From: a virus
Lineage: Duplodnaviria; Caudoviricetes
IMG/VR virus record: IMGVR_UViG_3300017761_006794
Location: 1 to 61,399 of that record
DNA length: 61,399 nucleotides
Reading direction: 5' to 3' (one strand)
Every line of letters begins with the position of its first letter. Position 1 is the first letter of the stretch. A program made the position numbers and the translations under genes. Of the stretch, positions 1 to 42,596 are shown in pieces. The notes beneath the pieces were generated by a model. That model had not been told where the DNA came from. It searched no databases and was given only the letters and a program-made list of their open reading frames with translations.

Positions 1-3000
1 CTGAACTGTGCAGAAACCTTGATCGAGGGCTTCCTCCTGAGAGCTGCCTGCCCCCTGAAGAACGAGCCTGAGGCGTAGGATCTTCCACCTATGATCTGGT
101 CAAGGACACTGGGCGTGAAGCTCGGGAGTTGTGGAGCATTCCTGTATGCCGTAGCGGGTGACTCGTTCACTCCGCTGAAGAAGAGGTCGTGGATGATCAC
201 AGTGTCGCTGCTCATCTTCACGAGCCTCCGGACGTTCGAGCCCGAGACCGTTGTCCTTGACGACCCGTCCGCGGCAACTCCTCTTGTACCGCCGAAGAAT
301 GAACCGGTGACGATATCCGCCAAGTACGTGCCGCTGAACGCGTCTCCCTCGGCGTTGTCAAACCTGTCCACGATAAAATTGTCGCCTACTGTCTGCGTGA
401 AGTCACTTGAGAAAGTTCCACGAGTGACCTGTTTACCGATGTTATCGGCAAGATACTCACCGATGAGTATGATCTCAGCCTCTCCGTGAAGGATTCGGAG
501 ATACGAGTTGCCAGAGTAATGCGGAAGAGTTTCTCGCATTATCGGAGCAACAAAGGGGGTGATGTTGGGCCGTGGAGATGGGTCAATGGGAGACGGGAAA
601 GAAGGCATAAAGCTGCCGTAATCACGGAACCACCGGCCTCTGGGTCGTCCCTCCCAACCGACTATCTTCATGAACTCGTCTATTGGTGAACCTTCAAGAT
701 TCACCAATATTTGTCCCGTTGAAGTTCCAAAATTTCCGTTAACCGCTACGGTAGTTGAACCGAGACCAGGCTCCTTGATGATGCTGATACCAGCAAGGTC
801 TCTTGTTCCACCCTGGTTCGGATTATCATCAGAGACCACCACCCCTTGTCCGCCGAGTGTAATCCCAAGATTGCTAGTGATCTTAGGAGAAGCAGAGAAT
901 GTCCTTCCTGCGCCAAGCGACAGCACACCCCCGCCAGGGCCAGATTTTGCCCCTCCGCTGAAGAGCTTGAAAGAAGAACCACCGAACAGAGGGGGAGGTT
1001 CGGGAGCCTGGTAATCCGGTCTCGGATTGCCGTACATTGGCGCAACATCAGGTGGCGGAGTCACTCCAGCATCAAGCCCGAAGACCAGTTCATCGGTCGG
1101 CATGAGAACATAGTCTCTCAGCAGTTGTTTCTCCTTGTTCTCAGAAACAGGTGAGTACCCAACAGTTAGGGAGGCAACAAGCTCAGCAACAGATGAACCA
1201 GAAAGGTTGCCGATCGTAAGTTCTGAGCCACCATAGTCTACTGTTCCTTCGTCTTCTTGATTATCAAAGTTGATGAGGTTTGAGCGTTTAATAACACCCG
1301 CTTTCCTTGGCTTCGCATTTTCTGCTAGTGTGACTGGCAAGCTTCTTCCGTCCGTTGACAGGTCGAAAGGATTCTTGAATACGTTTGATTTGTCATCAAA
1401 CAATGACAAGCCGACACGACCGACCTCAATGTCAAAGGTGGGTTCAGTGTAGCTTTCAAGAAATTTCAAGCTTTCTTCTGTAATGAAGAACTTTTCGTCT
1501 CTCTCATACTGCATGAATGGCTTAAAGCTGTAAACAGTAGAAGAATCTTCTGTAATGACACCAAGACGATTACCGAGTGGAGGAATCGACTTGCCGCTTA
1601 CACTAAAATGCGGTTGTCGAGTTCCACCGTACCAGAAATTCTGTACAATGGTTGTTATGGGCGGTCTTGCTGAGGATGATAGGTCAGAGTACGAACCAGT
1701 GTATGGATACCTGTTGTAGAGTCTGTTCAGGATTGAATTGTCGCCCTCTGACGTTGTCACGTAATATGAAGAAGAAATGTGACCGGTAGAGCTTGTGACG
1801 TGGAAGAGTGTTGAGTTCGGATAATTCCCGAGAACAACAGAGGGATAAGACACCAGCTTTATTCCGCCTTGCGCAAGATATCTTTCCGATGTTACTCCGC
1901 CCGCCCTCAGACTTGCAGACAAGCCGGCGTTAACCGCAAGCGTAGGATTGTGTATCGGAAAGCTTGTCCTGTTCAGGCCAGCTGCACTGATAGCATCGAT
2001 ATTGTTACCAGTGGTGTACGAAATGATATCTCTCAGATAAGCAGAAGTGAACAAGCCACCCTGGAAACTTTGTGACAGGGGGGTTCCGGTCCCAAACCTG
2101 TCGTAAAAGCCGTCTGATTGTGCAAGACCAAAGGAACTAGAGTTGTAGACGCATACAGATGAAGAGGCTATCAAAAATCTGACTGAAGATGAGATATCTG
2201 CAAGAGAATCTTTTGATTTGCCTAATCTTCTCTGTCTGTAGAGAAAGAAAGTGTAGTTGTCAAGATCCTTTCTGGCTGTGACATCTTTCTCCCAAAGATG
2301 TCCCGAGTCGAAGCTTGATGTCACAACGTCTTGTCTTCTGTGAAGCTGAACCGGGACCTTCACTATCATCTTTCTTAGCAGGAATGGTCTGTCTATGTAA
2401 TCGCTAAGTTTAATCGTTTCTTCATCGAAAGCGTGATACTTAGGGTGACTCGGCGCCTCAAAAGTTACGGTGGGAGTGCCGATATTCGAGTAACCAGAAG
2501 ACTCAAGATGCTCCTTATACGGAAGAAAATAACCAAGCTGTGGTGAAGAAGTGAACTGTGACAAAATTTTGTCAGTACCTGTCACAAACAACTTTGATGA
2601 AAGCCAATAACTAAGATCAACGCTGAACAAGTCGTCTATTCTTAGTCTTGCCAGATCAAACTGATTTATGTCAACACGATTACCAGCAGCGTTGGTGACT
2701 TCTTCCGCAGTGTTAATTTCTATCGCATTTGTCGACCCTGTTTCGTCCTTATCCCTCGTGTTCCCGCCAGCCCCAGTCCAGTATCGACTGTTGGATATTG
2801 AAGTCGCGTGGTCGGACCTCTTCTCGACCCACCGCTTGTAGAAGGGTGAGTAGTAGTAGAAGCCTGTTCCTGCGATGCCGGTCTCGTGACCGTTGTAGCG
2901 GTCGAAAGAGCTCGATACTCCCCTGAACGCCGAGGACAGGAAGAGGCTACCACCTGCCCAGTTCGCGGTCTTCGTGAGAGACGCCATCCTCGAGTCCGTG

Positions 3001-4979
3001 CGGCCCATGTACTGGGTGCCCTGGAGTTGGAGCTTGTAGATGGCCAGAGCTTCGTTAGCAGTGAGCGCCTTGTTCCAAAGCTCAAATGATGCTATTCTTC
3101 CTACGAAGTCATTTGTGTACTGAGTAGTCGAAACAGCTCCAACTACGAGGTCGTAAGTCGACGAATTGGGGGCAGTGAATGTGCCTGCTGAAGACTTTGA
3201 GCTATTAGAAACCGACCCATTGACGTAAATCGATATAGAACTCTGATCACTGCCGCCATAAGTCACAGTGATGTGATACCACTTGTTTGCAGAAATAGGT
3301 GAATCTGTAGTGACTGCGTTTATTGAGCTGGTCCCACCTGTTCCGTCTATTTGAAATTCAATGTTACCGCTTGAATTAATGCTGCAATAGTATTCGTTGA
3401 TCTTTGCAAAGACATATTGCGTGCCTGACAGATTTGCAGGTCTGACCCAGAAGCTGATGGTCTTACCTTTGTTTATTTCAAAATGAAAATCTTGAGAGTC
3501 TGAGACTTTCAAGTAGTCATGATTCGTGCTGTTAGTGCTGTTTCTCTCCAAGTTTAGATTTCCACGACTGGTGATGGGGCCAGGCGCGTAGTCTAGTCTA
3601 ACACTTGCGTCGCCATAGAGAGTTCCTGTGTGACCGTTACCGCTCTTGTCCTCGACCGTCCCGTTACCGGAGCCAGTGACCGGTGCCTCAAAGTTCCAGT
3701 GCGCGACAACTGAGTCCCTGAAGTCGTAGGTCGTGGGACCCAGCTGGTAGACCTCGTGAGCAGGGTCCCAGCTTGCTTTGCTCGAGATGTCGATCTTGAA
3801 GAAAGACTTTCCTTGTGTTCCGTCAGGAAGAAGGAGGTCCTGCTTCGTGATATCGTCCTTGAACTCAGGGTGTGAGATGTCCTCTGATATCTCAGGGACG
3901 TTTCGCTGTATGAGGCTCGAAAGCGTGACTGTCGAGATGTCCTGGTTCTTGTATCCGCTCACCTCGGCACTTCTTGACTGCGCTCCAGGGTAGTAGACCT
4001 GCGATCCTTCGATCACCCTTGTCGCGTCAAAGGGAGAAGTCTTGCTCACTGTGTCCGAATCGGAGAACCCGATATTCACAGGAGAGGATCTCCTCAGGAC
4101 TCTCTGCCTCGAGTTGAAGGGTGATGAACCCGATGAGTACGAGAGCCTGTCGAGGAACGCCAGCGAGTCAGTGCCGTTCTCAGTGTCCCTGAAAGTGTAG
4201 CCGTTATTCGTTGACCTGAAGTTCGAGCCGAACTTCGTGTAAGACCCTGTCGCCTTCTCGAGGACCGCTACGAATGAGTCGTCTGAGACTCTGCTCGCCA
4301 TGAGGGTCGCATCGTCACTGTCCTCGAAAGGGACAGAGAGGAGGGGCTCGTCAGGGAAGTAGGTGAACTTCGCGTCGAGGGGACGGTCGAGGTTGTCACC
4401 GAACTCCTGGTAAGCCCTTGTCTCTCCCTGGTAGCCCTCGTAGTACACTCTCTGTTCGATCGGAACGGACCTGCCGAGGAGGTCCTCGTGTGCGTTTGCC
4501 CAGGTGCCCCTCACCCTCCTTGACTCGAAAGGGGACTCGTTGTTTGTCCTCGTCGCAATGTCGCGGATCGCGAAGGGCTCGAGTACTCCGTCGTAGACTC
4601 CCGGGTCTATGGGAGAGACCGCGTCAAGGACGATCGGGTACCTCACGTCATAATTTTCGTCTGCCACGTATGTCACAGGGTCCAGCGGAGCCATCTCCTC
4701 GAAAGGAGTGTCATCGTAGTGGGTCTTTGGGACACCGAGGTCTCTCTTCTCGGCCCTGTGATTAGGTGCTCTCTCGAGCTTCTTCGATGAGATCTGTGTG
4801 GTGACTGTCTCGTCGAAGTACTCGGTGTCAGCAATGGGCTTCCCATCGAGGACGAGACTCGGAGTCGAGTTAGACAGGATTCGCGGGAGAGCCGATGCAA
4901 AGACCTGCGCGAAGCCGTTGATCTCTACGCCCTGCCTGCTGTTCTCTGCCTGGACTGACCCTGATATCGTACTTGCCAT
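1..4979 (-). CDS. Very large virion structural protein with LamG/concanavalin A-like domain (partial, >1659 aa, runs off left edge)
   Basis: ATG at 4979 overlaps the upstream stop (TGATG). Manual translation gives MASTISGSVQAENSRQG..., DSVVAHWNFEAPVTGSGNGTVEDKSGNGHTGTL (LamG-type start, ~3720-3620) and ...RKPSIKVSAQF at the window edge in the same frame. Its absence from the ORF track is consistent with no in-frame stop in the window. Confidence 0.85.
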   Translation of the reverse strand, partial: MASTISGSVQAENSRQGVEINGFAQVFASALPRILSNSTPSLVLDGKPIADTEYFDETVTTQISSKKLERAPNHRAEKRDLGVPKTHYDDTPFEEMAPLDPVTYVADENYDVRYPIVLDAVSPIDPGVYDGVLEPFAIRDIATRTNNESPFESRRVRGTWANAHEDLLGRSVPIEQRVYYEGYQGETRAYQEFGDNLDRPLDAKFTYFPDEPLLSVPFEDSDDATLMASRVSDDSFVAVLEKATGSYTKFGSNFRSTNNGYTFRDTENGTDSLAFLDRLSYSSGSSPFNSRQRVLRRSSPVNIGFSDSDTVSKTSPFDATRVIEGSQVYYPGAQSRSAEVSGYKNQDISTVTLSSLIQRNVPEISEDISHPEFKDDITKQDLLLPDGTQGKSFFKIDISSKASWDPAHEVYQLGPTTYDFRDSVVAHWNFEAPVTGSGNGTVEDKSGNGHTGTLYGDASVRLDYAPGPITSRGNLNLERNSTNSTNHDYLKVSDSQDFHFEINKGKTISFWVRPANLSGTQYVFAKINEYYCSINSSGNIEFQIDGTGGTSSINAVTTDSPISANKWYHITVTYGGSDQSSISIYVNGSVSNSSKSSAGTFTAPNSSTYDLVVGAVSTTQYTNDFVGRIASFELWNKALTANEALAIYKLQLQGTQYMGRTDSRMASLTKTANWAGGSLFLSSAFRGVSSSFDRYNGHETGIAGTGFYYYSPFYKRWVEKRSDHATSISNSRYWTGAGGNTRDKDETGSTNAIEINTAEEVTNAAGNRVDINQFDLARLRIDDLFSVDLSYWLSSKLFVTGTDKILSQFTSSPQLGYFLPYKEHLESSGYSNIGTPTVTFEAPSHPKYHAFDEETIKLSDYIDRPFLLRKMIVKVPVQLHRRQDVVTSSFDSGHLWEKDVTARKDLDNYTFFLYRQRRLGKSKDSLADISSSVRFLIASSSVCVYNSSSFGLAQSDGFYDRFGTGTPLSQSFQGGLFTSAYLRDIISYTTGNNIDAISAAGLNRTSFPIHNPTLAVNAGLSASLRAGGVTSERYLAQGGIKLVSYPSVVLGNYPNSTLFHVTSSTGHISSSYYVTTSEGDNSILNRLYNRYPYTGSYSDLSSSARPPITTIVQNFWYGGTRQPHFSVSGKSIPPLGNRLGVITEDSSTVYSFKPFMQYERDEKFFITEESLKFLESYTEPTFDIEVGRVGLSLFDDKSNVFKNPFDLSTDGRSLPVTLAENAKPRKAGVIKRSNLINFDNQEDEGTVDYGGSELTIGNLSGSSVAELVASLTVGYSPVSENKEKQLLRDYVLMPTDELVFGLDAGVTPPPDVAPMYGNPRPDYQAPEPPPLFGGSSFKLFSGGAKSGPGGGVLSLGAGRTFSASPKITSNLGITLGGQGVVVSDDNPNQGGTRDLAGISIIKEPGLGSTTVAVNGNFGTSTGQILVNLEGSPIDEFMKIVGWEGRPRGRWFRDYGSFMPSFPSPIDPSPRPNITPFVAPIMRETLPHYSGNSYLRILHGEAEIILIGEYLADNIGKQVTRGTFSSDFTQTVGDNFIVDRFDNAEGDAFSGTYLADIVTGSFFGGTRGVAADGSSRTTVSGSNVRRLVKMSSDTVIIHDLFFSGVNESPATAYRNAPQLPSFTPSVLDQIIGGRSYASGSFFRGQAALRRKPSIKVSAQF

Positions 4980-7900
4980 CAAGCCCTCTTTATGGTTGCT
5001 AGAAGCTGGTTGAGACCGATCGTGCCCCTGAGACCGACCCTATCATTCTCTCCGAGGTATAGATCTCCCCAGTGATACCGTGCGCGGTGTCTCTCAAGCA
5101 TGTGACTCTCAACAACGAAGTTTGTTCCGAAATATCTAGTGTTTGCGGGAAGAACCTGCTCGATCAAGTTGCCGATATTCTCCTCGAACCACTTTGAGAA
5201 GAGGAACACGTTCCTCATGTCTATCTTCCCCGTAAGTCGATTGAAGTAAATGTCTCTCATGTCTTCGAGCTCAGGGTAGTCCTCGTCAAAGAGATTTGTC
5301 GGGCTGCCGATGGCATTGTCGATGCTCTGGTAGTCAGAGAACATCCTGATGATGTCCTCATCAAGACCCTTCACCGTGGAGATTTCAATGCCGAACCTCA
5401 TGTCGTCATTACCCTCCTCATTCACCGGCACTTCGTAAACAGGTCCTACTTCGCCCCCGTACTTCTCGACATTTTCGTATGACCGCCAGGACCTCACTCT
5501 CACTTTAGTGTCTGCTGAACGCTCGTCAAACTTCGGCTCGAGACTGGAAAAGATTACGTCGTCGTAGTCAATGACTGTCTGGTTCGACTGGAATCCGGAC
5601 CCAGTGAGATGGAGGTTGTTCTGGGAGTAGTCGATGAACGAAATGCTCCCGCCTGATCCCGCTGTGACTGTGTCTTGGTCGAACGGGACGTCAACTCGGA
5701 GTCTCTCGAAAGACCCTGACTCGCTTGTTACGTAATTAAAATTGGTAAGTGGATTCCGCACGCCGAGAGACTCGTGATTCCTGAGGTGCTCGAACCACTC
5801 TCTTCTGTCGAGGTTCTTCGAGTAGAACCTCACGCTCGATATCTCACCGGTGAAAGATCCAGTGAGAGCTGCGGAGTAGTTTGTGGCGGTAAGGAGGGGT
5901 GAGTTATTCGAGACGCTGCTCTCTTCACCGACCACGAAGAATGACCCTGACGAGTTCAGGGTGGAAGTGACTCTTGAGAAGAGGTCGCTGCCAGCGGCAG
6001 AAGTGACCATCAGGGTTGACTCGTAAGCCTCGGATATCTCTCCGCCGTTGGTGCTTCCGAGCCTGAGAAACCACGAGCTCCTCGTATCTGTCTCTTTCTT
6101 CCTTCCGATGCTGAGCTGCCACCTCTCACCGTTGAATATGTGGGAGCCGGTGACCGAGAGGGTAAACGGGTTTGAAGAAGAGTCTGAGTACGCCCCGTAG
6201 AGGGTCACTGTTGCGAGTCCCTCTGAGTATGAACTGCTGGGGACAGCGACAACATTGAGCATTATGCTCTTCCCGGTGGACCCCGTGGAGTAGAACCTCA
6301 CCAGGGACTCCTTCGCAGACTCAGTCCTGCTATCGGGGAACCTGTAGACTCCCTCCCAGCCCCAGGAGCCTGTAGTGAAGAGACCGTCGGAAGCCACGCT
6401 AGATCCCCCAGTTCCGATAACACCCTGGGTGATCGGAAACCCGGGCTCGATCCTTGATCCCGAGAGGTAGGGTGAAGTGATGAGCCAGCTGCCAGTCACC
6501 GCAACCTTTCCTGTTGAGTCCCTGCGCTGACGGCGCCCTTCAATGAAACCGCCCCGAGCACCGCCGTACTCTCTCACTCGAAGTGAGGTGTCCGGGTTCA
6601 CTCCGAATGACCTGATTATGCTCTTCACGGAGTGTATTGTTCCCTTGCTTCGTAGGATGTCCGGTATGTTTGCGACCATCCTGCGCCAGATCTGTCCCTG
6701 AATATCTCCGAGAGTTTGCAGTCCCTCGTTGGGGTTTATCCCAATATCGTCACCGTAGACCGAGCTTCTCAGGTCCGTCGGAGTGAAGAGCTGCGGAAGC
6801 TCGAATCCGTAGCTCCTTGCCTGGAGTGGGATGAATGTACTCGCAATCGATCCTGTGGCATTGTACTCAAGGCTCTCGAATTTCGAGAAGTGATCGAGAT
6901 AGATCTTGTTCTCGTCAAACTGCTTTGCCCAGATATACAGTAGGCTTGAGAGTATCTGCGCGGGGCCGATTTTCGAGCTCCTGGGAGCGTCTCCCTCGTA
7001 AGGATACTGCTCAACAACAGGACCTTCCTCGGTCTCAAATCCCTGCGAAAGCTGCCCGAGAGCAAAGTACTGCTTAGGAACCAGCTTTGTTATGAGATTC
7101 GGGTTTGTCTCGTCATAGAGAGAAGCGCTAGTGAGGAGCTCTGTGTTTAGAGTGACTAGGGCTGGGAAGTCCGGGAACAGGATGGGGTTCTCAAGAGCCC
7201 TCTCTATGACGCTGGGACGTCCGTCTGATCCGTCCTTGAGAGAATTTGAGAAATTGCTGACGTGAGAGTGGAGACCGTTACCGCTCGTGTCCAGTACCAA
7301 CGATGACTGTGAGTATGTCCCATACGGTTCATTGAACTTGTAGTAGAGTTTCAGGTGACTAGAAGGCTCAGCGGAAGCAGAAAGAACCGACTTTATCTCG
7401 TCCTGTGTTCTTGCCCTGTGGTAGAATTTGAAGTCGTCAACAGATCCGCTGAGGGTGGACGTCGGGACAAAGTTGAAGCCTGTTGAGGCGTGACGACTAC
7501 CGCTACCAATTAGGAAGACGGTCCCCCGAGTGTCGAAATCAGAGAACTCGTATGAAGTAGACGACGATGAGACAAGCTCACCGTTCAGGTAGAGGAAGAG
7601 CCTGTTGACTCCCGGCTTCCTATTGAACTGTGCGCAGACATCGTTCCACGTTCCCTTTGAAAGGAATCCAGACGTGTTGAGGACAGCGCTCCCAGACGTT
7701 GCATAGAAATTGAGAGATGCAGAGAGAGCGGAGTTCGACTGCGAGAGGAAGAGAGAGTACCCGCTTGAACCTGACAAACGTTGGAACACCGTCGAGCTCG
7801 GATTTGACTCTCCTGGCACGAACAGCTTGAACTGCAGTGACAGAGATCCTGCTCCTGGGTCGAGGACCGCGCCACCGTCATCTCTTTTCGAGAGGAGCGG

Positions 7901-8308
7901 GAGACTTGCACCCGCTATGTCGTTCACTGAAACGTAGCTGCTGTTCCTGAAAGACAATGAGTTGAGGCTCTTTGGGAACCTCTCGTAGACTCTTCTCTCA
8001 AACCCCGTGAGAGAGTCTATGAAAGAGTTTATCTCCCCTGATGTACCATCAAACGGGAAGTTGTTGATGATCGTGTCAAAGGCAACATTGACAGAGACTT
8101 CAGCTGAGCTGAAGAAGGTGTGGTCCTCGAAACGATCCCAGTCGAGCGGAACCTGTTGCGTTGACCTGAGAGGGGATCCGGGCGGATCAAACCTGAATGA
8201 TGCTGTCGTTGAAGTGACCTCGACAAGGTCATTGCCCCTAAGACGCAGTTCGGGGGCACCTGATGCCTGCTTCAGCGGGAATCCAGCCGGTCTCTTGAAG
8301 ACAGCCAT
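4979..8308 (-). CDS. Virion/baseplate structural protein with LamG-like domains (1109 aa)
   Basis: LamG motifs (LFLYLNGELV, SGSVDDFKFY, LKLYYKFNE...VLDTSGNGLH) and the phage tail/baseplate-like motif LRSKGTIHSVKSIIRSFG; lies in the baseplate operon. Confidence 0.75.
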   Translation of the reverse strand: MAVFKRPAGFPLKQASGAPELRLRGNDLVEVTSTTASFRFDPPGSPLRSTQQVPLDWDRFEDHTFFSSAEVSVNVAFDTIINNFPFDGTSGEINSFIDSLTGFERRVYERFPKSLNSLSFRNSSYVSVNDIAGASLPLLSKRDDGGAVLDPGAGSLSLQFKLFVPGESNPSSTVFQRLSGSSGYSLFLSQSNSALSASLNFYATSGSAVLNTSGFLSKGTWNDVCAQFNRKPGVNRLFLYLNGELVSSSSTSYEFSDFDTRGTVFLIGSGSRHASTGFNFVPTSTLSGSVDDFKFYHRARTQDEIKSVLSASAEPSSHLKLYYKFNEPYGTYSQSSLVLDTSGNGLHSHVSNFSNSLKDGSDGRPSVIERALENPILFPDFPALVTLNTELLTSASLYDETNPNLITKLVPKQYFALGQLSQGFETEEGPVVEQYPYEGDAPRSSKIGPAQILSSLLYIWAKQFDENKIYLDHFSKFESLEYNATGSIASTFIPLQARSYGFELPQLFTPTDLRSSVYGDDIGINPNEGLQTLGDIQGQIWRRMVANIPDILRSKGTIHSVKSIIRSFGVNPDTSLRVREYGGARGGFIEGRRQRRDSTGKVAVTGSWLITSPYLSGSRIEPGFPITQGVIGTGGSSVASDGLFTTGSWGWEGVYRFPDSRTESAKESLVRFYSTGSTGKSIMLNVVAVPSSSYSEGLATVTLYGAYSDSSSNPFTLSVTGSHIFNGERWQLSIGRKKETDTRSSWFLRLGSTNGGEISEAYESTLMVTSAAGSDLFSRVTSTLNSSGSFFVVGEESSVSNNSPLLTATNYSAALTGSFTGEISSVRFYSKNLDRREWFEHLRNHESLGVRNPLTNFNYVTSESGSFERLRVDVPFDQDTVTAGSGGSISFIDYSQNNLHLTGSGFQSNQTVIDYDDVIFSSLEPKFDERSADTKVRVRSWRSYENVEKYGGEVGPVYEVPVNEEGNDDMRFGIEISTVKGLDEDIIRMFSDYQSIDNAIGSPTNLFDEDYPELEDMRDIYFNRLTGKIDMRNVFLFSKWFEENIGNLIEQVLPANTRYFGTNFVVESHMLERHRARYHWGDLYLGENDRVGLRGTIGLNQLLATIKRA

Positions 8309-28834: not shown

Positions 28835-28840
28835 GAGCCC

Positions 28841-31225: not shown

Positions 31226-31992
31226 ACAGAAAGAACCTTCCTGTATTCGGTTTGACAGTTTAGAAGAAACCACTGTGAACGAGAAGCGCCTGCCCCAGCA
31301 AGTCTCTTTTGAACATTGTCGTATTCAACTCCATATCTGGAGTCTTTTGAGCGCATCCACCTGCTGCTGATATCGAGCCTGGGCTCTCCTACCTGGTTGT
31401 TGTACGTATCGTACGTTTCTTCTGGTATGACTTTGGCAATGTAGTCATTCATAATGTGCCACTTACGATGAAAGTGTGGTTCAGAAGCAGCGCAGGCTGC
31501 GTGACCATCCTTTCGAGGAGGTCTCCAAGAAAAGTCATAGTTGCTATGAATGGATTCGTAGACAGCAACATCTGCAATCTTCATGCGAAGCGTGTAATCA
31601 TCGTCCTCAAAGCCACCACCGAGAAATCTCTCGTCAAACCACCCGACTCTCCGGAACAACTCCTTGGTGACAGCCATGTAGGCAATCCCCCACATGCCGG
31701 CCATTGCAAAACCGGACTCAAGAAGTTCGAAAGACTTGACTGCTTCCTCAGCTGTTGGAACAACCCTGTCACTAACAAGGAGAATCCTCTCAGTGGGTGA
31801 AGTGACAATCGACTCATTAACCATCTGAGAGTAAGAGTCATATGTCCCAGGGTGTCTATCGATCCTGTTGTTCCAGTGAACGTTGTAGATCTCTTCAAGA
31901 GGCTTGAGCCTCTCGGTATGAAATCTCACTATGTTCTCTCGGCCCTCGCCGGCGTAAAGACAGATAGTGATATCTTTCTTGTCATCGATCAT
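31222..31992 (-). CDS. Glycosyltransferase family 2-like
   Basis: VGWFDERFLGGGFEDDDY motif. Confidence 0.75.
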   Translation of the reverse strand: MIDDKKDITICLYAGEGRENIVRFHTERLKPLEEIYNVHWNNRIDRHPGTYDSYSQMVNESIVTSPTERILLVSDRVVPTAEEAVKSFELLESGFAMAGMWGIAYMAVTKELFRRVGWFDERFLGGGFEDDDYTLRMKIADVAVYESIHSNYDFSWRPPRKDGHAACAASEPHFHRKWHIMNDYIAKVIPEETYDTYNNQVGEPRLDISSRWMRSKDSRYGVEYDNVQKRLAGAGASRSQWFLLNCQTEYRKVLSV

Positions 31993-32891
31993 TGAGTCTT
32001 CTCCAGAAGAGTCTTGAGAATTTCTAGTGCTCTTGCTTCAGTTGTCCCGTGCTTTAGTAACCACTCTCTTTGCGCAAAGAGCATCTCCATGTATTCTTTT
32101 GTAGGGATGCCGTTGACAACAAGCCTGTTGATTAGACTTTCAAGTTCTTCAGGGGTGGAGTAGCTAAAACAGGGAAGGTTCTGTGGTGCACAAAGCGGGG
32201 GCTTCTTGTCATAGTCTCTGAACAACAATAGAGAACCTGCCGCCATTATCTCATAGTGACGAAGTGAATCCCATCCGCCTTTCTTACAAGAGAGTCCAAA
32301 CCAAGAGTTTTGCATGTCTTCATAGTATTCTTTCTCCTGCCTCCAAGTGTATGGATAATGAAGACGAAGATGCCCTAACGTGGGTTGTCTAAAGATAGAC
32401 TCAGCGGGAGCGGTCGATTGTACTGCTTGGGTCTTCTTGAGAGCTATCGGTCTGATCTGATAATGAGGAATTCCGAAACCTGTGGGATAGACATTCTCTT
32501 CGGCGTTGAAGAGCTCTCTCTTGAAGCACGGCTTTTTCTTGATGTCCGACGTGTCATGTCCATCAACATACCAAACATGTTGACAGAGTTTGTTGATATC
32601 AGGGTAGTCTGAGACACCGTAGGCCTCGGTCACACCGTACAAGATCACGTCTATCTTGCTCATCAACCTTTCTGATTGATCAAGATCTTGCATTGGAACT
32701 GTGTAGAGTGTGAAACCCCTACCATGCATCTCGTCCCTAGTGGTCTCAGAGAAGTCTCCGTACATGACTTTTTTACGAGGGAAATCGACAACGCCAGACC
32801 CCAAAACGCTTCTCAACCCGTGAAGCACTACGTTCTCTTGATAGTCTCCCTGTGCTCTTGGGTTCTGGGTGGTGATATAGAGAATGTTCAT
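31989..32891 (-). CDS. Putative glycosyltransferase (GT-B)
   Basis: DGHD, CFKRE, KKGGWDSLRHYEIMAAG; inside the glycan island. Confidence 0.6.
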   Translation of the reverse strand: MNILYITTQNPRAQGDYQENVVLHGLRSVLGSGVVDFPRKKVMYGDFSETTRDEMHGRGFTLYTVPMQDLDQSERLMSKIDVILYGVTEAYGVSDYPDINKLCQHVWYVDGHDTSDIKKKPCFKRELFNAEENVYPTGFGIPHYQIRPIALKKTQAVQSTAPAESIFRQPTLGHLRLHYPYTWRQEKEYYEDMQNSWFGLSCKKGGWDSLRHYEIMAAGSLLLFRDYDKKPPLCAPQNLPCFSYSTPEELESLINRLVVNGIPTKEYMEMLFAQREWLLKHGTTEARALEILKTLLEKTQ

Positions 32892-32892
32892 T

Positions 32893-33705
32893 CTACTTCC
32901 TCAAAGAAAATTGTGTAGAACACCTGAGATGGGACGGCTCAAGAGTCACTAGTGATTGTAACCCCGCGAAGTAGCTCTCATCCCAGAGCCCACCTCCTGC
33001 AAAATGCCGGAAGACTGTTTCGTTTCTGTGAGTCGGTATCATGAAGTAGTCGTTGAAGCCCTCACCAGCAACATGAGTAACATTCCATTCAGTCGGAAGT
33101 ACTTCGACATTTTCAGAAAGTTCTTCCAGCGAGTACTTAGTCCAAGAAGAAACATCAGTTCGAAATCCGAAGTTGCCCAGCTCGTTGAAAGGAATCCAGC
33201 TGTGTTGAGTTATACCAGCCAAGAAATACCAGGCTGCTTGCTCCCTGAGATTGTTTCCTGGCGGTTCTTTTGACTTCACCTCCAAGAATCGGTATAAGTC
33301 CTCGTCAAGGATATTCTTAAGAAGATCTCTAGACCACTTGTTCACAGTGATAGTGTATGCTCCCATGCAGTGGGTGTTACATGAATCAATAGCATACCCA
33401 AAAGATTTATTGGTCTGAAACGGTTCAGAGATGTCAGCAACGCATATGTCGGCGTCAATGTGCGAAACTATGTCTCCATCAGAGATCTCACCAGAACTGA
33501 TCCAATCGTCAACTATCTTGAACTTAAGCCAAGTAGGATTGTCTCTAAAAAATTTCCCATTTTGTTCTTTAGGAAGCTTTCGAATCTCTCGATATTCGAA
33601 ACCATGCTTTTCAGCGTATTCCTTGTTTCTCGGAGACATCCATTTTTCAAAGAAATCTTGTCTACCATCGGGGTAGTCAGCGATCACAAAAAGAATTTTT
33701 TTCAT
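32893..33705 (-). CDS. Putative glycosyltransferase, GT34 (GMA12/MNN10)-like
   Basis: KEYAEKHGFEY, WLK, HIDAD (DxD), EQAA. Confidence 0.65.
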   Translation of the reverse strand: MKKILFVIADYPDGRQDFFEKWMSPRNKEYAEKHGFEYREIRKLPKEQNGKFFRDNPTWLKFKIVDDWISSGEISDGDIVSHIDADICVADISEPFQTNKSFGYAIDSCNTHCMGAYTITVNKWSRDLLKNILDEDLYRFLEVKSKEPPGNNLREQAAWYFLAGITQHSWIPFNELGNFGFRTDVSSWTKYSLEELSENVEVLPTEWNVTHVAGEGFNDYFMIPTHRNETVFRHFAGGGLWDESYFAGLQSLVTLEPSHLRCSTQFSLRK

Positions 33706-34577
33706 CGAACCCTCTTGGAAATGTGCCTGCAGCTTGCTTCTACGCTGAAGAAGTCTCCCCAGAGAGACCCTAGGGTCTCCTGCATTTGTCTAACTTGTTT
33801 CCCATTCATTGAAGTAAGCCTATCATACAGCGTATCAATCTCTTGTGAGTTGACAATCACGCTGAAATCACTCCAGTCAATCTCGTCGCTCCAAGGGAGA
33901 AGGTGTCTGTCAGAAACGTAGACAGGAACAGACCCAAGCTGGATGGACTCGTAGAGCCTATAGCTTGTTGAGCCATACCCTCTTGGGCACAGACTAAACA
34001 CCGAGTGAGACGCAAGATTTTTGAACAGTGCAGCTGAATCAGGATTCACTTTCTCCTGCCACTCGCTAGCGTTTATGATCACACCGGGTTTCCCGTAAAG
34101 AGAACTCAACAATCGGTGGCGGATCGGATGCGTAACCGATCCAACGAAAGAGCAGAAGACAGTTCTCACTGGGTCAGTGATACCATGGTGAGACCCACAG
34201 GTCAGTGGTACAGCAACGTCTATCTTCTTCGCGTTTCCACCAGCTGCAAAGACTAGAGTGTCCGGCGGTAGTCTCTCTGCGGGTGCATCATCATGAGTGC
34301 ACACCACGAAGTAACTTCCACACTTATCTAGTGAGTCGAGGTATTCTTGCAACTTGACTCTCAAGTCCCTGTTGGGACTCTCACTTCCCAGTCCTTCTTT
34401 CACCCTGTGATTGTAGACTGCAGTCCAGTGAACGGGGATGAGCTTTCTTTGTCCAGAACCATTTTCGCGCCAGAACTTGACAAACGCTTCTTCAAGATGG
34501 TCGCCAGTATGATGTGGAGGATAACAAGGGTCAACTCTGTCCAGCAAGAAATCCGGCACCTCACGTGTCATGCTCAC
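33702..34577 (-). CDS. Exostosin-family (GT47-like) glycosyltransferase
   Basis: SFVGS..HPIR, SVFSLCPRGYG, RLYESIQLGSVPVYVSD, LPWSDEIDW. Confidence 0.8.
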   Translation of the reverse strand: MSMTREVPDFLLDRVDPCYPPHHTGDHLEEAFVKFWRENGSGQRKLIPVHWTAVYNHRVKEGLGSESPNRDLRVKLQEYLDSLDKCGSYFVVCTHDDAPAERLPPDTLVFAAGGNAKKIDVAVPLTCGSHHGITDPVRTVFCSFVGSVTHPIRHRLLSSLYGKPGVIINASEWQEKVNPDSAALFKNLASHSVFSLCPRGYGSTSYRLYESIQLGSVPVYVSDRHLLPWSDEIDWSDFSVIVNSQEIDTLYDRLTSMNGKQVRQMQETLGSLWGDFFSVEASCRHISKRVR

Positions 34578-35392
34578 TGTCCACCTTCCATCATCGAGAG
34601 AATCTCTGAATATGAGCGGTTGTCACACTGTTTCATTAGAGACTTTAGCCTATCAACAAGAAATTGTCCATAGTTCGTGTAGTCAAGGTTCTTTAAGGTG
34701 TGGACATGGAAGCAGACAGCAGGAAGTCCTCCAAAGGTTATCTGCTTTCCGTCATGACCAAGGAGGTCTAGTCTCCCTCTGGTATGAGGTTCATTGAACC
34801 TCCACCACCCAATGTTGTAATTGATGGGCAGGTTCACGGTGAGGTGTGGGTATGAACTGAACTGTAGGGGCTGCTGTTCATAATACAGGCCAAGTTCTTT
34901 GTGACGCCAAGACATATGAGCATGGTTCTTCAGATATGAGAGACTTCTCATTGAGAAGAACCCGACGTTAAAGTGACCGACTTGGGTCTCAAGAATCAAG
35001 TTGTTTGTCATGTGAGGACTCAAGACTGCGTCAACGCTAGGGTCTCTCATGAGAGCAAGAACTCGATCCTCTATCGGTCCGGTGAAGAAGATATCAGAGT
35101 CTATGAAAAGACCCCAGCCGTTCTCTTCGATTGCAGACTGGAGTGCGTCAAACTTGGTCATCACAAGCTCGAGGAAAAGCCTGTTTTTCACCGGGTCGTC
35201 TGTGCCATGACTACACTCATCAGTCTTCACCAAAAGCAGAGACTTGACGTTCTCAATCTCCTTGAGAATTGTGTGCGCGTACTCGTCTGTTGAAACGTAC
35301 CACATGACATCGTGATAGTTCTCAAGGGACTTCTTGAGAATCATGAACTCAGAAAGAGACTTCTTGGTGACAACGGAAGCTGCTGGTATCAA
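34574..35392 (-). CDS. Putative GT-A glycosyltransferase
   Basis: FIDSDIFF (DxD), LSPH, FNVGF, EQ, NIGWW. Confidence 0.65.
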   Translation of the reverse strand: MIPAASVVTKKSLSEFMILKKSLENYHDVMWYVSTDEYAHTILKEIENVKSLLLVKTDECSHGTDDPVKNRLFLELVMTKFDALQSAIEENGWGLFIDSDIFFTGPIEDRVLALMRDPSVDAVLSPHMTNNLILETQVGHFNVGFFSMRSLSYLKNHAHMSWRHKELGLYYEQQPLQFSSYPHLTVNLPINYNIGWWRFNEPHTRGRLDLLGHDGKQITFGGLPAVCFHVHTLKNLDYTNYGQFLVDRLKSLMKQCDNRSYSEILSMMEGGQ

Positions 35393-36309
35393 GACAGCAC
35401 CTGCACGTATTTGTCATCCCTTCTTTCAAGCTTGAACCTCTTCTTGAATCGAGATCTCTTGATAAGTTCCCAATCAGCCTCTTTCTCATCGCCTGTAAGG
35501 CTCGAAATTTTACAGACTCCCGGCACTCCAGCGTCATACTCGTATCCGTCTCTTGAAGCGCGATAGTTCAGCATATGAAAGCCGTGAGATCTCTCACCGT
35601 CTTGACCTTTCTTACCCATCTGGTTCTTGGGCAACCATGGATAGATGCACGCTCCAAAAGGGTACATTGGATCTGGTCCAATCTGTAAGTCACTCCCCGT
35701 CCAGATTGCGGAGAAAGTCCAGTCTCCGCCGTTGTTGTAGAGCCTTCTTTGCACAATCCCCTTCATCTTGGTCCCGTCTGCATGGCAACCAAGAAGAACA
35801 TGTTCGTCATCAATCACTGATGTGACATTAAAGAAATCGCAGTCAGTGAATGGATCAGACCACCTTGAAATGCGATCATAGACTCTCCACCTCACGTTCT
35901 CTTCAAGTATGACATCGTCCTCAAGAGAAACAAAGATGGAGTTTGGAAAATTCTGCTTGACAACCTGATAGGACTTCCACTGGGCTTTGGCGTGAGTCTT
36001 TGCACCAGGACGTGGAATGTGATGGTCACCTTCTCTCTTTTCGTTTGCGTTGTCATCCCAGGGATTGATCTCTCCAACTTCGACAACAGCAACGTTCTTG
36101 ATTTGATAGTCTTCAATACACTTTCTGATCTCTTCAAGAGTTCCGTCAGTGGAACCATCATCAGTGATAATCACAAAATCAAATTGTTTGTATGCCTGTT
36201 TGAGGGCCGCGTAGACAGTCAACTCACCGTTGAATGTCTTGAGACCACATACAAGTGGAAACTTTCTGCAGAGATCGTTCCAATGCCTGACCACTTCTTC
36301 TCGGGTCAT
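35389..36309 (-). CDS. Glycosyltransferase family 2
   Basis: TFN, DDGSTDGT, LEDD. Confidence 0.75.
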   Translation of the reverse strand: MTREEVVRHWNDLCRKFPLVCGLKTFNGELTVYAALKQAYKQFDFVIITDDGSTDGTLEEIRKCIEDYQIKNVAVVEVGEINPWDDNANEKREGDHHIPRPGAKTHAKAQWKSYQVVKQNFPNSIFVSLEDDVILEENVRWRVYDRISRWSDPFTDCDFFNVTSVIDDEHVLLGCHADGTKMKGIVQRRLYNNGGDWTFSAIWTGSDLQIGPDPMYPFGACIYPWLPKNQMGKKGQDGERSHGFHMLNYRASRDGYEYDAGVPGVCKISSLTGDEKEADWELIKRSRFKKRFKLERRDDKYVQVLS

Positions 36310-37163
36310 TACCACACTCCTATTGCAGACATTCTAGCATGAAGTGAACCCTGGGTAAACGAGAGGACACTGTCGGTAGAAGTTGAACCCAGCCTGTGAA
36401 CGCTTCTTTTCAAGTCTTCGAAATCTCTGAAGAATATGACGCCGGGGTTCTCTTTCAGCATTGACTCATGGCGCCTGTATTCACCCATGGTGTGTTGCAG
36501 GAGAATTCGACCAGAGTACAGGGACTCGTATGCCCTAGTGTTGAGACCTCTCAGTATCCCCACAGGGTTGAGAATGTTCCTGTGAGACATGAGATTGGAG
36601 AGATATCCGTCCCAACCAAGATCACGAGAAACATTTGAGATGACAAGCTTCTTGCCAAGCTCAGGATCCGCAGATATTGCCTGAAGAAGCTCATTCCTCA
36701 TCTGATATTCAGGTTTCCCAGCCTGTCCACTAAAAAGAAGTTTATCTGATTCGGGGAGGAGAGTCCTCTCATGGTAGAACCTTGACGAGGCCCACTGGGG
36801 GAGCCAGTCAAGACCATACTTGTCACAGTCGTCCTCATCACAAGCAAGCACTCTCTTACAGAAAGTCGAAGCAAGACCGAGAGAGTAGTGACTTTTCTGC
36901 TGCCAGGCTGGGACTATTGCGTCGATCCTCTCGAAACACCAGACCCAGTGTTCCCATTTGTCCTTGCGAGACTGCCACTTCTTGAGCTTCTCTTCGCTGT
37001 CCCAAAGGAAAAAGAGGAAGTCATGACCGATGAAAAGGAGATCGTCTTCAGTCTCAAAAACATGTTCGTATGAGCTTTCAGACACAATGACTACGTCAGT
37101 GACGCCGTAGTCTAGAATCGAAGAAGAAGTACCGCACCCGTAGTCCTGTGTGACAAGTTTCAT
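36309..37163 (-). CDS. Putative glycosyltransferase (Glyco_trans_1_2/CgeB-like)
   Basis: LFSG, LNTRAYESLYSG pattern; inside the glycan island. Confidence 0.55.
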   Translation of the reverse strand: MKLVTQDYGCGTSSSILDYGVTDVVIVSESSYEHVFETEDDLLFIGHDFLFFLWDSEEKLKKWQSRKDKWEHWVWCFERIDAIVPAWQQKSHYSLGLASTFCKRVLACDEDDCDKYGLDWLPQWASSRFYHERTLLPESDKLLFSGQAGKPEYQMRNELLQAISADPELGKKLVISNVSRDLGWDGYLSNLMSHRNILNPVGILRGLNTRAYESLYSGRILLQHTMGEYRRHESMLKENPGVIFFRDFEDLKRSVHRLGSTSTDSVLSFTQGSLHARMSAIGVW

Positions 37164-37164
37164 T

Positions 37165-37851
37165 CTACCATTCCGGTGGCCACCAGTGATATTCCACGCC
37201 CATAGAAATCAGAGCTTTCATGCTGTCTAAGTATTTTCTCTCGAATTCTCTGTGTCTCTCTGGGTAGAATGCGTCATGCCACTCAACAAAGAAACCCTTT
37301 AGACACGGGGGGATTTCGGAGTTGAACAACCTTGGAAGTATGACATACTCTCCGCCTTCAGTGTCAATCTTCATGAAGACTTCACCCTTCAGGCCTGCAA
37401 GCAACTCGAGTATGTCTATGGTTTGTATAGAGACCGGGTCTTCTAAAATGAGTCTCTCGAAGTCTGGTTCGTAGGGGTTCTTCTTGTCAGGTAGCAAAGT
37501 TGACCCATAGTCTGAAGCTCTTCCTTCACTTCGGTAGAAAGTGTTTTCACCAGTGCTGTCCCAAACTCCTGCACAGATCACAGTGACAGAAGAAGCAGTG
37601 TGTGACGCTTTCTCAGCCGCAGCGCACAAATCGTCAAAGTGGTGGGGGTCAGGCTCCAGAAGGAACATGTGACATCCCTTGAATGAGGAAACGCTACAAA
37701 TCCTTCTATCTTCCCTGACTCCCAGATTCTCATCAAAGAAGTGACCTCTCAAAAGCTCTGCTTTTCTAGCTCCGATGTCAATAAAAACCAAACCGCTTCT
37801 CTCAAGAGTCGGTTCTACTGACACCCCCCTCTCATAACACTTGATTTTCAT
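37165..37851 (-). CDS. FkbM-family methyltransferase
   Basis: FIDIGA, EPDP, KIDTEGGE, VEWH. Confidence 0.85.
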   Translation of the reverse strand: MKIKCYERGVSVEPTLERSGLVFIDIGARKAELLRGHFFDENLGVREDRRICSVSSFKGCHMFLLEPDPHHFDDLCAAAEKASHTASSVTVICAGVWDSTGENTFYRSEGRASDYGSTLLPDKKNPYEPDFERLILEDPVSIQTIDILELLAGLKGEVFMKIDTEGGEYVILPRLFNSEIPPCLKGFFVEWHDAFYPERHREFERKYLDSMKALISMGVEYHWWPPEW

Positions 37852-37852
37852 T

Positions 37853-39694
37853 TTATTCCTCAACACTCAGATGCGGAGTCCTACGGTTCCAGTCGATCTT
37901 CTCGTGAAAGATGTGACCACCAGTCTCTTCAGCTAGCCTCTTTGCAAGACTCGAGATTTCCTCGTCAGTGACCTCACTCCACGGCTTGTCAAAGAACATG
38001 TTGTTCTCTGTGGTGTCCTCCTGTCGGATATCGTAGAGGCTCTCCCAGTGCTTCTGCCAGTATCCTCGATATGTCTTGATCTTCCGTTCTATGTCGAGCC
38101 ACGAGTAGTGACGTATCGAGGGCAGGTTGTTGATGGTCTCACCGAACCACTTCACATAGTCTCTTCCTGCGTCGCGGTCTCCCCCAAGCGCAGACATCCG
38201 CATGTGGTGGTGCACCTCAGCGTAGAAAGTCGCATGCGGAATATACTGACCGGTCTTTACGTGGACATAGTCACAACCGTCAGTCCCGGGCATGGAGTAC
38301 ATCTTCCCGGCCAAGTCGTAGCGTCGCAGGTGACCAGGAATGCCGTGTGTGATGTGACCTCTGTTCCTGGAGAGTCGCCACTTCCATGGGTTCACGTCAA
38401 TGCGAGCCTTCTGCTTCGACCCCCAGTACTCGACAACCGGCAGGGCAATGAGATCAACCTCAGGCGACATCCTCTTGCAGAGCTCGGTGACCTTCGGCCA
38501 GTCGACCTCGAGGAGGACCTCGTCAGCGTCCATCTGCCAGCAGAACTCTTTAGTGCAGAGCTTTCGAGCCTCTGCTTTCATTGCTCCGTCAAAGACCGCA
38601 AACCTGCTGTCATTCCAGTCCCAGTGGACCTGCTTCGTCACAAGCTTCTCGTTCTCAGAGGCGAGCTGCTGGATCCTCTCCCAGGTGCCGTCAGTCGAAT
38701 CACCGTCGAGGACCACAACCTCATCACAGAAACCGAGAAGAGACTCGATAGACTTCTCCCAGGGATAACCCTGGGAGACGCAGTTACGAGTGGTGACGTA
38801 ACCGCTGATAGTGGGCACCCAACTCATTGCTTTCTGAACTCCATTCCAGAATGTCTCTCTTGCGGCGTAGAGGTACGACTCAGTCTCAAGCGTGTCTGGG
38901 GTGTTGAACCAGATCTCGTTCCCGTGCTCCACGTTGTCATTAAGCTGAAGTTCGCAGCCGAGAAGCTTCGCCTCGATGACCATCCGAGGACAGGTGTCAC
39001 CTCCCTTGGGAAGGTAGACAAACCCCTCCGCATGGGCCATCTCGTAGAGAACCTCACTCGGCTTCAGACCGGAGAGGACCTTGTACTTCTTCCCGTTGTC
39101 CTCGCACCACTTTACTGCGTCATCGGTACCCTTGATCCAGGAGCTGGATCCAAGGACAAGCCATCCTTCGCGCTTGCGGTCCTCTCCTCCCTCTCGAAGT
39201 GCTCTCAGCTCGATCCAGAACTCCTCTGAGAAGACCGATGAGAGAACGCTCTGGTTCCGTTCCTGGAGATCAGGATATCGCTCCAGGTACCTCTGCTGCT
39301 GCTTCTCTGACATCCACCAGAGAGAGCGTGCTCCGTAGTAGAAAGCACCGACAAGTCGACCCCAGGGCTCGTCCTGGCAGCTACATGGGGTCTTCTCTGC
39401 AAGAGAGTGCTTCTCAGGTGAGCGGTAACGACAGAACTTGTAGTCGTACTCCAGCACAGAGTAGGACATGTTTGCAATGATTGTCGGAATCAGATTGCGG
39501 TCAAGCCCAGCCCAGTTGCCGAAGATCCAGTGCAGTCCGTGGTACTGCTGCAGGAGCTCGACTGTGACCTGCCCAGAGCGCAGCTTAATTAAATTAAACG
39601 GTGACGAGTCGATCAGAGCCTGGGTCGTCAGCTCCGCTCCACCGACTAGATCCTCTTGGAAGAAGTCAGCTACTATGACAAGATTCTGTCTCAA
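37853..39694 (-). CDS. Bifunctional glycosyltransferase (N-terminal GT4-like + C-terminal GT2)
   Basis: N-terminal GGAE, KG, DTCPRMVIEAKLLGC; C-terminal DGDSTDGT, QMDADE. Confidence 0.85.
   Translation of the reverse strand: MRQNLVIVADFFQEDLVGGAELTTQALIDSSPFNLIKLRSGQVTVELLQQYHGLHWIFGNWAGLDRNLIPTIIANMSYSVLEYDYKFCRYRSPEKHSLAEKTPCSCQDEPWGRLVGAFYYGARSLWWMSEKQQQRYLERYPDLQERNQSVLSSVFSEEFWIELRALREGGEDRKREGWLVLGSSSWIKGTDDAVKWCEDNGKKYKVLSGLKPSEVLYEMAHAEGFVYLPKGGDTCPRMVIEAKLLGCELQLNDNVEHGNEIWFNTPDTLETESYLYAARETFWNGVQKAMSWVPTISGYVTTRNCVSQGYPWEKSIESLLGFCDEVVVLDGDSTDGTWERIQQLASENEKLVTKQVHWDWNDSRFAVFDGAMKAEARKLCTKEFCWQMDADEVLLEVDWPKVTELCKRMSPEVDLIALPVVEYWGSKQKARIDVNPWKWRLSRNRGHITHGIPGHLRRYDLAGKMYSMPGTDGCDYVHVKTGQYIPHATFYAEVHHHMRMSALGGDRDAGRDYVKWFGETINNLPSIRHYSWLDIERKIKTYRGYWQKHWESLYDIRQEDTTENNMFFDKPWSEVTDEEISSLAKRLAEETGGHIFHEKIDWNRRTPHLSVEE

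Positions 39695-42596: not shown

Follow-up and report, generated by a model that had tools for sequence, protein, structure and literature searches.

The 61.4-kb viral contig IMGVR_UViG_3300017761_006794 encodes four proteins, a fibre (F) and three products of its tail genes (A, B and C), in which the tripeptide [S/T]-G-S occurs about 3–6 times as often as expected from their composition. The contig is the whole record and is called the window below, and the virion genes considered are those within it. Our analysis of the sequence suggests that [S/T]-G-S, with alanine tolerated in the middle and threonine at the end, may be the acceptor motif for phage-encoded O-glycosylation of exposed tail proteins. 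We regard this reading as quite possible, if still short of probable. The candidate enzymes are two conserved GT4-type glycosyltransferases, GT4a and GT4b.

Results

A tripeptide in excess in four proteins

Motif counts were compared with three null models: 1000 composition-preserving shuffles, shuffling inside 40-residue blocks, and a first-order Markov model. Fibre F contains 18 motifs, and 6.0 are expected from both the global shuffle (z 5.1) and the 40-residue blocks (p ≤ 5e-4). Protein B contains 14, compared to 2.6 from the global shuffle (z 7.3) and 3.1 from the blocks (p ≤ 5e-4). The equivalent values are 7, 1.2 (z 5.4) and 1.0 (p ≤ 5e-4) for protein C, and 10, 3.5 (z 3.5) and 4.1 (p = 0.006) for protein A. 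All four counts are 1.5–2.1-fold over the first-order Markov expectation. Of the 65 open reading frames (ORFs) examined, the 61 besides these four contain no motif or one.

The original prediction, made by eye, had given about 18 motifs for the fibre, about 14 for the 1109-residue LamG protein (B) and about 7 for the protein at 8309 (C), numbers that our recount reproduced exactly; protein A had been left uncounted. It had also described the motif as nearly absent from PrkA, PhoH, DinG and the baseplate J protein, in which we found 1, 1, 0 and 0, respectively. Correction for composition had been proposed as a check, and the excess persists under both global and local shuffles.

Over the four proteins together, the most enriched tripeptides are TGS (at least 21, compared to 5.1 expected) and SGS (at least 24, compared to 8.7). 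Both are lower bounds, as protein C was not counted in its own frame in this ranking. The 49 motifs are encoded by 43 distinct 9-mers, and all six serine codons are in use. This variety indicates selection at the protein level, and a DNA-level cause of the motif was ruled out by it.

Internal repeats and paralogy were also considered as a cause, and were ruled out because the motif contexts are mutually unrelated. The 24-residue contexts have a mean BLOSUM62 score of -19.0, compared to -19.7 ± 0.9 for random Ser/Thr positions, and show no extra likeness. The earlier claim that the motifs are dispersed and not in tandem therefore holds. The sole clear internal repeat pair among the contexts is at fibre positions 207 and 573. 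Fibre F does contain internal repeats (VFGGDVxVSG and GSLTxLxxGTxYLIAGSN), and part of its excess stems from a family-wide VSGS(L/V)-type repeat. Hydrophobic residues are moderately favoured at positions -1 and +1 of the motif, in line with the earlier remark that one usually precedes it. Residue -1 is mostly L, F, T, S, V or I, and Asp is not among the six commonest.

The same bias in related phages

A megablast search of a phage collection with the fibre gave no match, tblastn of protein B gave one weak match only, and two scans of viral contigs with single proteins yielded no more than 2 loci and 1 locus. When an alignment was used for the scan, more than 515 relatives were detected, and 80 loci were kept. 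Orthologue groups were drawn from up to 81 loci.

At least 275 proteins are homologous to protein B, and the best 120, 38–99% identical, contain 1332 motifs compared to 249.1 expected, with a 5th-percentile ratio of 3.4. The best 120 fibre homologues contain 2028 motifs compared to 592.8 expected, and 116 of the 120 are above 2-fold. Orthologue groups C, B and A contain 481, 782 and 221 motifs, compared to 79.7, 149.2 and 58.0 expected (6.0-, 5.2- and 3.8-fold, respectively). A group of 500-residue proteins is close to expectation (42 compared to 35.1, 1.2-fold). The groups of GT4a (6 compared to 9.0, 0.67-fold) and GT4b (1 compared to 4.5, 0.22-fold) are below it, and so are those of two inner baseplate proteins, the J-like wedge (80 sequences, 7 compared to 47.6, 0.15-fold) and the gp25-like protein (78 sequences, 0 compared to 7.7). 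The depletion in these two goes beyond neutrality, and may reflect either selection against the motif or shared ancestry of the sequences.

Tripeptide tables computed on the A, B and C families revealed a narrow chemical preference. X-G-S is enriched only when X is S (5.1-fold) or T (5.2-fold), and all other residues give 0.3–1.7-fold. Turn-forming residues before G-S are not enriched (NGS 0.5-fold, DGS 1.3-fold, GGS 0.7-fold). The last position is highest with S (5.1–5.2-fold), followed by T (1.9–2.4-fold). In the middle, Gly is enriched 5.1-fold, Ala 2.8-fold and Ser about 1.5-fold, which agrees with the form [S/T]-[G/A/S]-S given in the original prediction. SGS and TGS reach only 0.5–0.6-fold in control proteins.

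The motifs of the B family are concentrated at 14 conserved sites, and about 10 of the 14 motifs in the window protein are at family-conserved positions. At these sites, position 1 is S/T in 84% and N/D in 3%, and position 3 is S/T in 81.5%. The residue preferences therefore suggest that the selected feature is two hydroxyl side chains flanking a very small residue.

Motif excess and GT4a in phage genomes

Cultured relatives were sought through the J-like protein. Only Flavobacterium phage immuto and Microcystis phage Mel-JY01 were found, at about 32% identity. Their genomes and those of five other phages were scanned for ORFs of at least 100 residues, and an ORF was taken as enriched at p < 1e-3 (Table 1).

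Table 1. [S/T]-G-S in ORFs of seven phage genomes and presence of GT4a
Phage	GT4a	ORFs	Motifs found	Motifs expected	Enriched ORFs
T4	no	177	19	27.3	0
S-PM2	no	144	92	60.7	0
KVP40	no	266	45	36.0	0
phiKZ	no	292	30	35.6	0
LR756508 (related 484-kb phage)	no	476	111	80.1	0 (none at p < 0.002)
Flavobacterium phage immuto	yes	158	117	46.5	6
Microcystis phage Mel-JY01	yes	199	140	55.7	8

None of the 879 ORFs of T4, S-PM2, KVP40 and phiKZ is enriched, and 19 T4 structural proteins together contain 7 motifs. In immuto and Mel-JY01, the enriched proteins form a block downstream of the wedge gene, with a few others elsewhere. Tail spikes, a tail fibre and the tail sheath are among the annotated products enriched in immuto. 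The remaining proteins of each phage are neutral (35 compared to 31.5 expected in immuto, 26 compared to 24.8 in Mel-JY01).

A profile of GT4a matches immuto (8e-76) and Mel-JY01 (7e-77), and has no match in T4, S-PM2, KVP40, phiKZ or LR756508. LR756508 has a J-like protein at the same distance and a GT4b-like gene, and no GT4a. Motif excess and GT4a are found together in all three positive genomes, and GT4a in none of the five negative ones. Phages without transferases had been put forward as a check on the original prediction, and the five genomes without GT4a show no motif bias.

Two further observations concern immuto. The densest protein in its genome is immuto35A_214 (MW353176.1, 135031–136152), a 373-residue hypothetical protein from the head/neck region with 12 motifs compared to 1.26 expected. 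Its annotated major capsid protein was not flagged for an excess.

Two glycosyltransferases beside the tail genes

GT4b matches PF00534 with 43.7 bits (cut-off 26.4). GT4a matches the same family with 27.2 bits and PF13692 with 30.5 bits (cut-off 27). Both match PHROG 2170, annotated as glycosyltransferase, at 1e-18. A hallmark of GT4 enzymes is the EX7E motif in the C-terminal domain. In GT4b it reads EGFGLSTLE and is at least 90% conserved in 30 sequences. The consensus of the GT4a family is EGxGLP+LE (41 sequences), and the window GT4a has Asp at the second acidic position. Among solved structures, one of the best matches of GT4b is the chlorovirus transferase B736L (PDB 3oy2; E 6.4e-6).

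GT4b and GT4a are located directly upstream of the tail/baseplate genes. GT4a is present in 47 of 81 loci and GT4b in 37 of 81, and the loci lacking them end before that point. The gene order common to the loci is nuclease, GT4b, GT4a, four small genes, gp25, J, C, B and A. The two GT4 genes encode the only conserved enzymes adjoining the tail genes. The original prediction had a phage glycosyltransferase recognise the motif; the conserved candidates for this role are the pair at 15289–17693, and not the island of sugar genes as a whole.

The place of the pair in the tail module is not strictly fixed. In loci L043 and L078, the block of small tail genes, together with the GT4 pair in L043, is inverted and placed downstream of the distal tail genes; the L078 sequence, with its rearranged module, stops short of the expected GT4 position. 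In immuto and Mel-JY01, the orthologous trio of nuclease, GT4b and GT4a is located elsewhere in the genome than the tail genes, with the PD-(D/E)XK gene upstream of the pair at about 48.0 kb and 81.4 kb, respectively. Distant GT4a-like genes occur in about 100 Streptomyces phage records, and that of Jay2Jay is a neighbour of ribonucleotide reductase, away from the tail genes.

Structure prediction suggested that GT4a and GT4b form a heterodimer. The predicted binding score is 0.87, compared to 0.00 for the best of three controls. By way of calibration, which is approximate because custom alignments were used, 116 of 157 solved complexes reach this mark, compared to 2 of 215 mismatched pairs. 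Contact agreement between runs was at least 94%, and the predicted local distance difference test (pLDDT) score of the partner was at least 91.

Motif positions in predicted structures

Proteins A and B both belong to Laminin_G_3, a family of concanavalin-A-like domains (PF13385, 87.6 and 56.2 bits, cut-off 27.6). The predicted structure of protein B (mean pLDDT 72) contains two LamG/pentraxin-like sandwiches and matches neurexin, laminin LG and pentraxin domains with E values down to 3e-9. The model of protein C (pLDDT 84) matches CBM/Ig-like sandwich folds.

Three motifs in these models form two-residue hairpins (B 179–181, B 205–207 and C 294–296). Others are located in the middle of a strand (C 302 and C 363), at the start of a helix (C 208) or in loops. 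One type of β-turn as the cause of the motif was ruled out by the mixed contexts in protein C. Contexts as varied as these speak against a single structural role, whereas the hairpin cases and an overlap with LamG features, described below, argue for a structural role. The modelled positions are compatible with surface exposure. Burial would have told against the original prediction. In the models, the motifs are found where hairpins turn, strands end or helices begin, with no single buried context; solvent exposure itself was not measured.

A variable sugar island without export genes

As had been noted originally, the genes of the motif proteins flank about 24 kb of sugar genes (15.3–39.7 kb). 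The nucleotide-sugar genes of the island include Glf, Gmd (434 bits, cut-off 415), an Fcl-like reductase and RfbH (474 bits, cut-off 423). There are also heptose genes (GmhA/HddA-like/HAD), nucleotidyltransferases, an NDP-sugar dehydrogenase, dehydratase/epimerase SDRs and three methyltransferases. The transferases of the island are a GT7C-like, a GT47-like and two GT2 enzymes. Two of its transferases are of types typical of eukaryotes, Glyco_transf_7C (31222–31992, minus strand; β-4-galactosyltransferase-like) and Exostosin GT47/RXYLT1_C (33702–34577, minus strand; 75.5 bits, cut-off 33.4).

No membrane segment (Kyte-Doolittle average of at least 1.8 over 19 residues) was predicted in any island protein. 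No Pfam match to a flippase, polymerase, ABC exporter or initiating phosphoglycosyltransferase was found at 15.3–39.7 kb, where six island proteins are without any Pfam match. The island thus lacks the make-up of a Wzx/Wzy- or ABC-dependent surface polysaccharide locus, and its earlier description as export-less was borne out.

In all five long relatives, NDP-sugar epimerase/dehydratase genes are located directly upstream of the GT4 block, and the sugar genes found at this place differ among relatives. In immuto, a DegT-like gene and an SDR gene follow the GT4 pair. Beyond the nuclease, the island genes of the window have only single Glf and Gmd matches in the 80 loci, whose flanks are too short for a firm comparison. 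The picture is that of a conserved, presumably priming, pair beside a variable sugar cassette.

Gene layout and other features

All genes of the window are on the minus strand. In the order of transcription, a replication/auxiliary block (DNA methylases, a DinG-like helicase, PrkA-SpoVR-DUF444 and PIN-PhoH) is followed by fibre F, the sugar island, the PD-(D/E)XK nuclease, GT4b, GT4a and the tail/baseplate genes. The latter encode four small or unknown proteins, the gp25-like and J-like proteins and then C, B and A (Table 2). The C-terminus of protein A is cut by the window edge.

Table 2. Features of the window
Feature	Position	Strand	[S/T]-G-S	Basis
Protein A, LamG-domain distal tail protein, >1660 residues	3..4982	-	10	Pfam Laminin_G_3, 87.6 bits
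Protein B, distal baseplate/tail protein, 1109 residues, two LamG/pentraxin-like sandwiches	4979..8308	-	14	Pfam, model
Protein C, β-sandwich protein directly after the J-like wedge gene, 499 residues	8309..9808	-	7	
Baseplate J (gp6)-like wedge protein, internal contrast	9810..11642	-	0	Pfam/PHROG matches
gp25-like baseplate wedge protein	11642..12124	-	0	Pfam GPW_gp25
GT4a, GT4-type glycosyltransferase, 388 residues from ATG	15289..16455	-		Pfam, PHROG
GT4b, GT4 glycosyltransferase with intact EX7E	16452..17693	-		Pfam, PHROG
PD-(D/E)XK exonuclease-like gene, upstream neighbour of the GT4 pair	17749..18834	-		
Lineage-variable sugar island, about 21 kb	18536..39694	-		Pfam
Fibre F, Ser/Gly-rich, 948 residues	39750..42596	-	18	

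Several other features of the window were recorded, all on the minus strand. A 435-residue protein at 43208–44515 is a PIN domain fused to PhoH, and its PhoH part has homologues in immuto and Mel-JY01. A 68-residue protein at 45145–45351 matches the chlamydial histone H1-like Hc1 (41.7 bits, cut-off 23.5). PrkA, SpoVR and DUF444 (YeaH-like) form a complete trio at 47922–52350 (Pfam 475, 395 and 350 bits). The sole tRNA is tRNA-Gly(CCC) at 56039–56134, reported at 96 nt compared to the usual 72–76, which may indicate an intron or an unusual arm. The early/auxiliary block contains two DNA methyltransferases, N6_N4_Mtase and MT-A70 (56826–57620 and 59844–60512), and an Hsp20 gene (57684–58229).

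Discussion

In the mechanism that we propose, GT4b and GT4a would form a heterodimer that adds the first sugar to the Ser/Thr hydroxyl of the motif, on turns or edges of folded or folding β-rich domains. The soluble transferases of the island would extend the glycan, all in the cytoplasm. The sugars would come from nucleotide sugars made by the island, and would include fucose/6-deoxyhexose, heptose, galactofuranose, dideoxyhexose and methylated sugars. The decorated surfaces would be those of fibres, spikes and peripheral baseplate proteins, joined in relatives by the sheath, and inner baseplate proteins would avoid the motif. Since the island content differs between relatives, the glycan would be strain-variable, like a virion-borne O-antigen.

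A broader version is more tentative. The whole tail exterior (sheath, outer baseplate, spikes and fibres) might lie under strain-variable glycans in a widespread clade of large aquatic phages, represented by more than 515 contigs and including the Flavobacterium and Microcystis phages. A heterodimeric GT4 enzyme would read [S/T]-G-S on folded β-rich domains, and the hypervariable cytoplasmic island, whose position next to the tail genes recalls an O-antigen locus, would extend the glycan.

The sequon and glycan shield of the original prediction stay plausible, and none of the checks that were run went against them; glycosylation itself is unproven from the sequence. A number of points weigh against it. 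The support is a correlation, and no modification has been observed. The predicted co-occurrence of motif and GT4 genes was found in the genomes compared, but the three positive lineages form one clade with shared ancestry, and it may therefore reflect a single event or a few. The fibre family is biased throughout, and some of its members may belong to phages without the GT4 genes. Non-structural proteins do not avoid the motif. In the B family, 947 of 1281 motifs fall within the 14 conserved alignment columns and the Gly is nearly invariant, and a structural element would look alike; outside these columns the motif is only about 1.4-fold over the composition expectation (334 compared to about 244). 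Some B sites overlap what we take to be canonical LamG features: those at 287 and 816 lie in 'xGx-D-D/E-hydrophobic-R-hydrophobic-Y', and in relatives the one at 329 lies in 'NEPSGS...DSSGNG'. As the two residues of a hairpin, G-S commonly makes a type II' turn. Lipid-linked or soluble molecules are common acceptors of GT4 enzymes. Finally, solved GT-B heterodimers exist, so the complex prediction may show likeness to these and not binding.

The main rival explanation is a lineage-specific structural element, namely a tight turn or bulge that centres on Gly and has Ser/Thr hydroxyls as caps; it would be inherited, employed repeatedly in the β-rich distal tail proteins of the clade, and unmodified. 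The GT4 pair and the island would then serve another target, such as a host surface polysaccharide or a small molecule. The positional conservation is consistent with this, including the Gly at G270, G788 and G865, which is invariant in A1. So are the motifs placed exactly at the three modelled hairpins, the overlap with LamG features, the small excess outside the conserved columns and the link of part of the fibre excess to the repeats HVS/VSG/GSL. However, generic turn formers are not enriched, and both flanking positions swap S and T and hardly ever take N or D. The contexts differ (hairpin, mid-strand, helix start) without sequence similarity, and the motif is present in unrelated folds (LamG, other sandwiches and the fibre, and the sheath and spikes of immuto). 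The β-rich tail proteins of T4, S-PM2, KVP40, phiKZ and LR756508 are without an excess. The conserved placement of two transferases within the tail module is also left unexplained. We consider an unmodified structural element somewhat unlikely.

It is improbable that the motif is read by something other than a glycosyltransferase, through Ser/Thr phosphorylation, another acylation, a tail-assembly chaperone or a host ligand. Hydroxyl-specific conservation would fit any O-linked modification, and the window has PrkA, SpoVR and DUF444 genes; yet tblastn found no homologue of these three in immuto or Mel-JY01, both of which are rich in the motif. Moreover, the sole conserved enzymes beside the tail genes are the two GT4 proteins, and no candidate chaperone was identified. 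We give equally little credence to the idea that phage DNA is what the island and the GT4 pair glycosylate, or that they alter the lipopolysaccharide or capsule of the host during infection, with the motif unrelated. In its favour, a nuclease gene is the conserved neighbour of the pair, and GT-B enzymes that act on undecaprenyl-linked sugars are also without membrane helices. Phage transferases are described as modifying DNA and host serotypes in the accessible text of one source (PMC12619734). Against it, the Pfam and hydrophobicity scans of the island revealed neither an initiating transferase nor a flippase, polymerase or exporter, and neither the motif nor the place of the pair in the tail module would be explained. 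In addition, the accessible part of a report on immuto describes DNA made of canonical dA, dC and dT, with formyl-preQ1 replacing dG, and no glycosylated nucleoside (bioRxiv 10.1101/2023.04.13.536721). As immuto has the orthologous pair, DNA is unlikely to be its target. An origin of the excess in Ser/Gly-rich composition or multiple testing has next to no probability. The four proteins are indeed Ser-rich (12–16%), and the fibre is also Gly-rich (16%). But the counts exceed all three null models, hundreds of homologues replicate the excess and other proteomes are neutral; the shuffles and the replication refute this cause.

For the glycosylation that we favour, the closest working analogy would be GtfA-GtfB of the serine-rich repeat adhesins of Gram-positive bacteria. 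According to the part of the source available, a two-protein priming transferase and variable extenders modify alternating serines in the cytoplasm, and the DUF1975 insertion domain mediates both the GtfA-GtfB and the acceptor contacts (PMC6973325). Similarly, cytoplasmic O-glycosylation of Ser/Thr by two GT-B-type proteins is proposed here, the acceptor serines alternate with small residues and a conserved pair is combined with a variable set of extenders. Unlike GtfA-GtfB, neither GT4a nor GT4b has a Pfam match to DUF1975 (E ≤ 0.001). Both GT4 families keep EX7E, whereas one partner is a chaperone in the adhesin system. The candidate acceptors are dispersed single motifs in folded virion proteins and not long disordered repeats, and there is no accessory Sec export here.

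In mycobacteriophages, as far as the accessible text goes, a surface shield is formed by O-linked glycans that phage transferases attach to capsid and tail-tube subunits at their C-terminal tails (PMC12619734). Phage-encoded transferases and virion proteins as proposed targets are common to both systems. The difference is that the candidate here is a tripeptide spread over the baseplate periphery, fibres, spikes and sheath, in contrast to the C-terminal tails described in that text, and that the phages of this clade are large aquatic myoviruses that bring nucleotide-sugar pathways of their own. General O-glycosylation in Bacteroidota acts on exported proteins in the periplasm, at the sequon D-(S/T)-(A/I/L/V/M/T). 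Here, Asp is not favoured before the motif Ser, and the candidate enzyme differs. Chloroviruses encode soluble transferases and sugar-nucleotide enzymes and attach glycans to structural proteins without host export machinery. Their capsid glycans are N-linked at atypical sequons. The soluble transferases and sugar-nucleotide genes of the window resemble this arrangement, and GT4b structurally matches B736L; unlike here, the hosts of chloroviruses are eukaryotes, and the acceptors are without homology. Large DNA viruses of algae and amoebae, with chlorovirus Vp54 as the example, are credited with autonomous glycosylation in the accessible part of a report that also suggests glycosylation for two virion glycoproteins of phage XacN1 (PMC5852040).

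The literature searched, which largely leaves out subscription journals, contained no defined sequon for phage virion glycosylation. It also contained no proteomic data on the contig or its relatives, and no paper on Mel-JY01. The system is possibly a new variety of phage-encoded virion glycosylation. Very few cases of such glycosylation are known in phages, none with a defined acceptor motif, and [S/T]-G-S would, if the reading is true, be the first defined sequon for it. Cultured hosts exist for two members, immuto and Mel-JY01, which makes the question directly testable. A compact two-enzyme system that reads a tripeptide on folded proteins would also be of interest to glyco-engineers. If [S/T]-G-S is a sequon, sequence would suffice to predict glycosylated tail proteins for hundreds of phage genomes from the environment. 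Large aquatic phages have long been noted for variable sugar islands, and these would then have a concrete target, which would be the virion and not the host surface or DNA.

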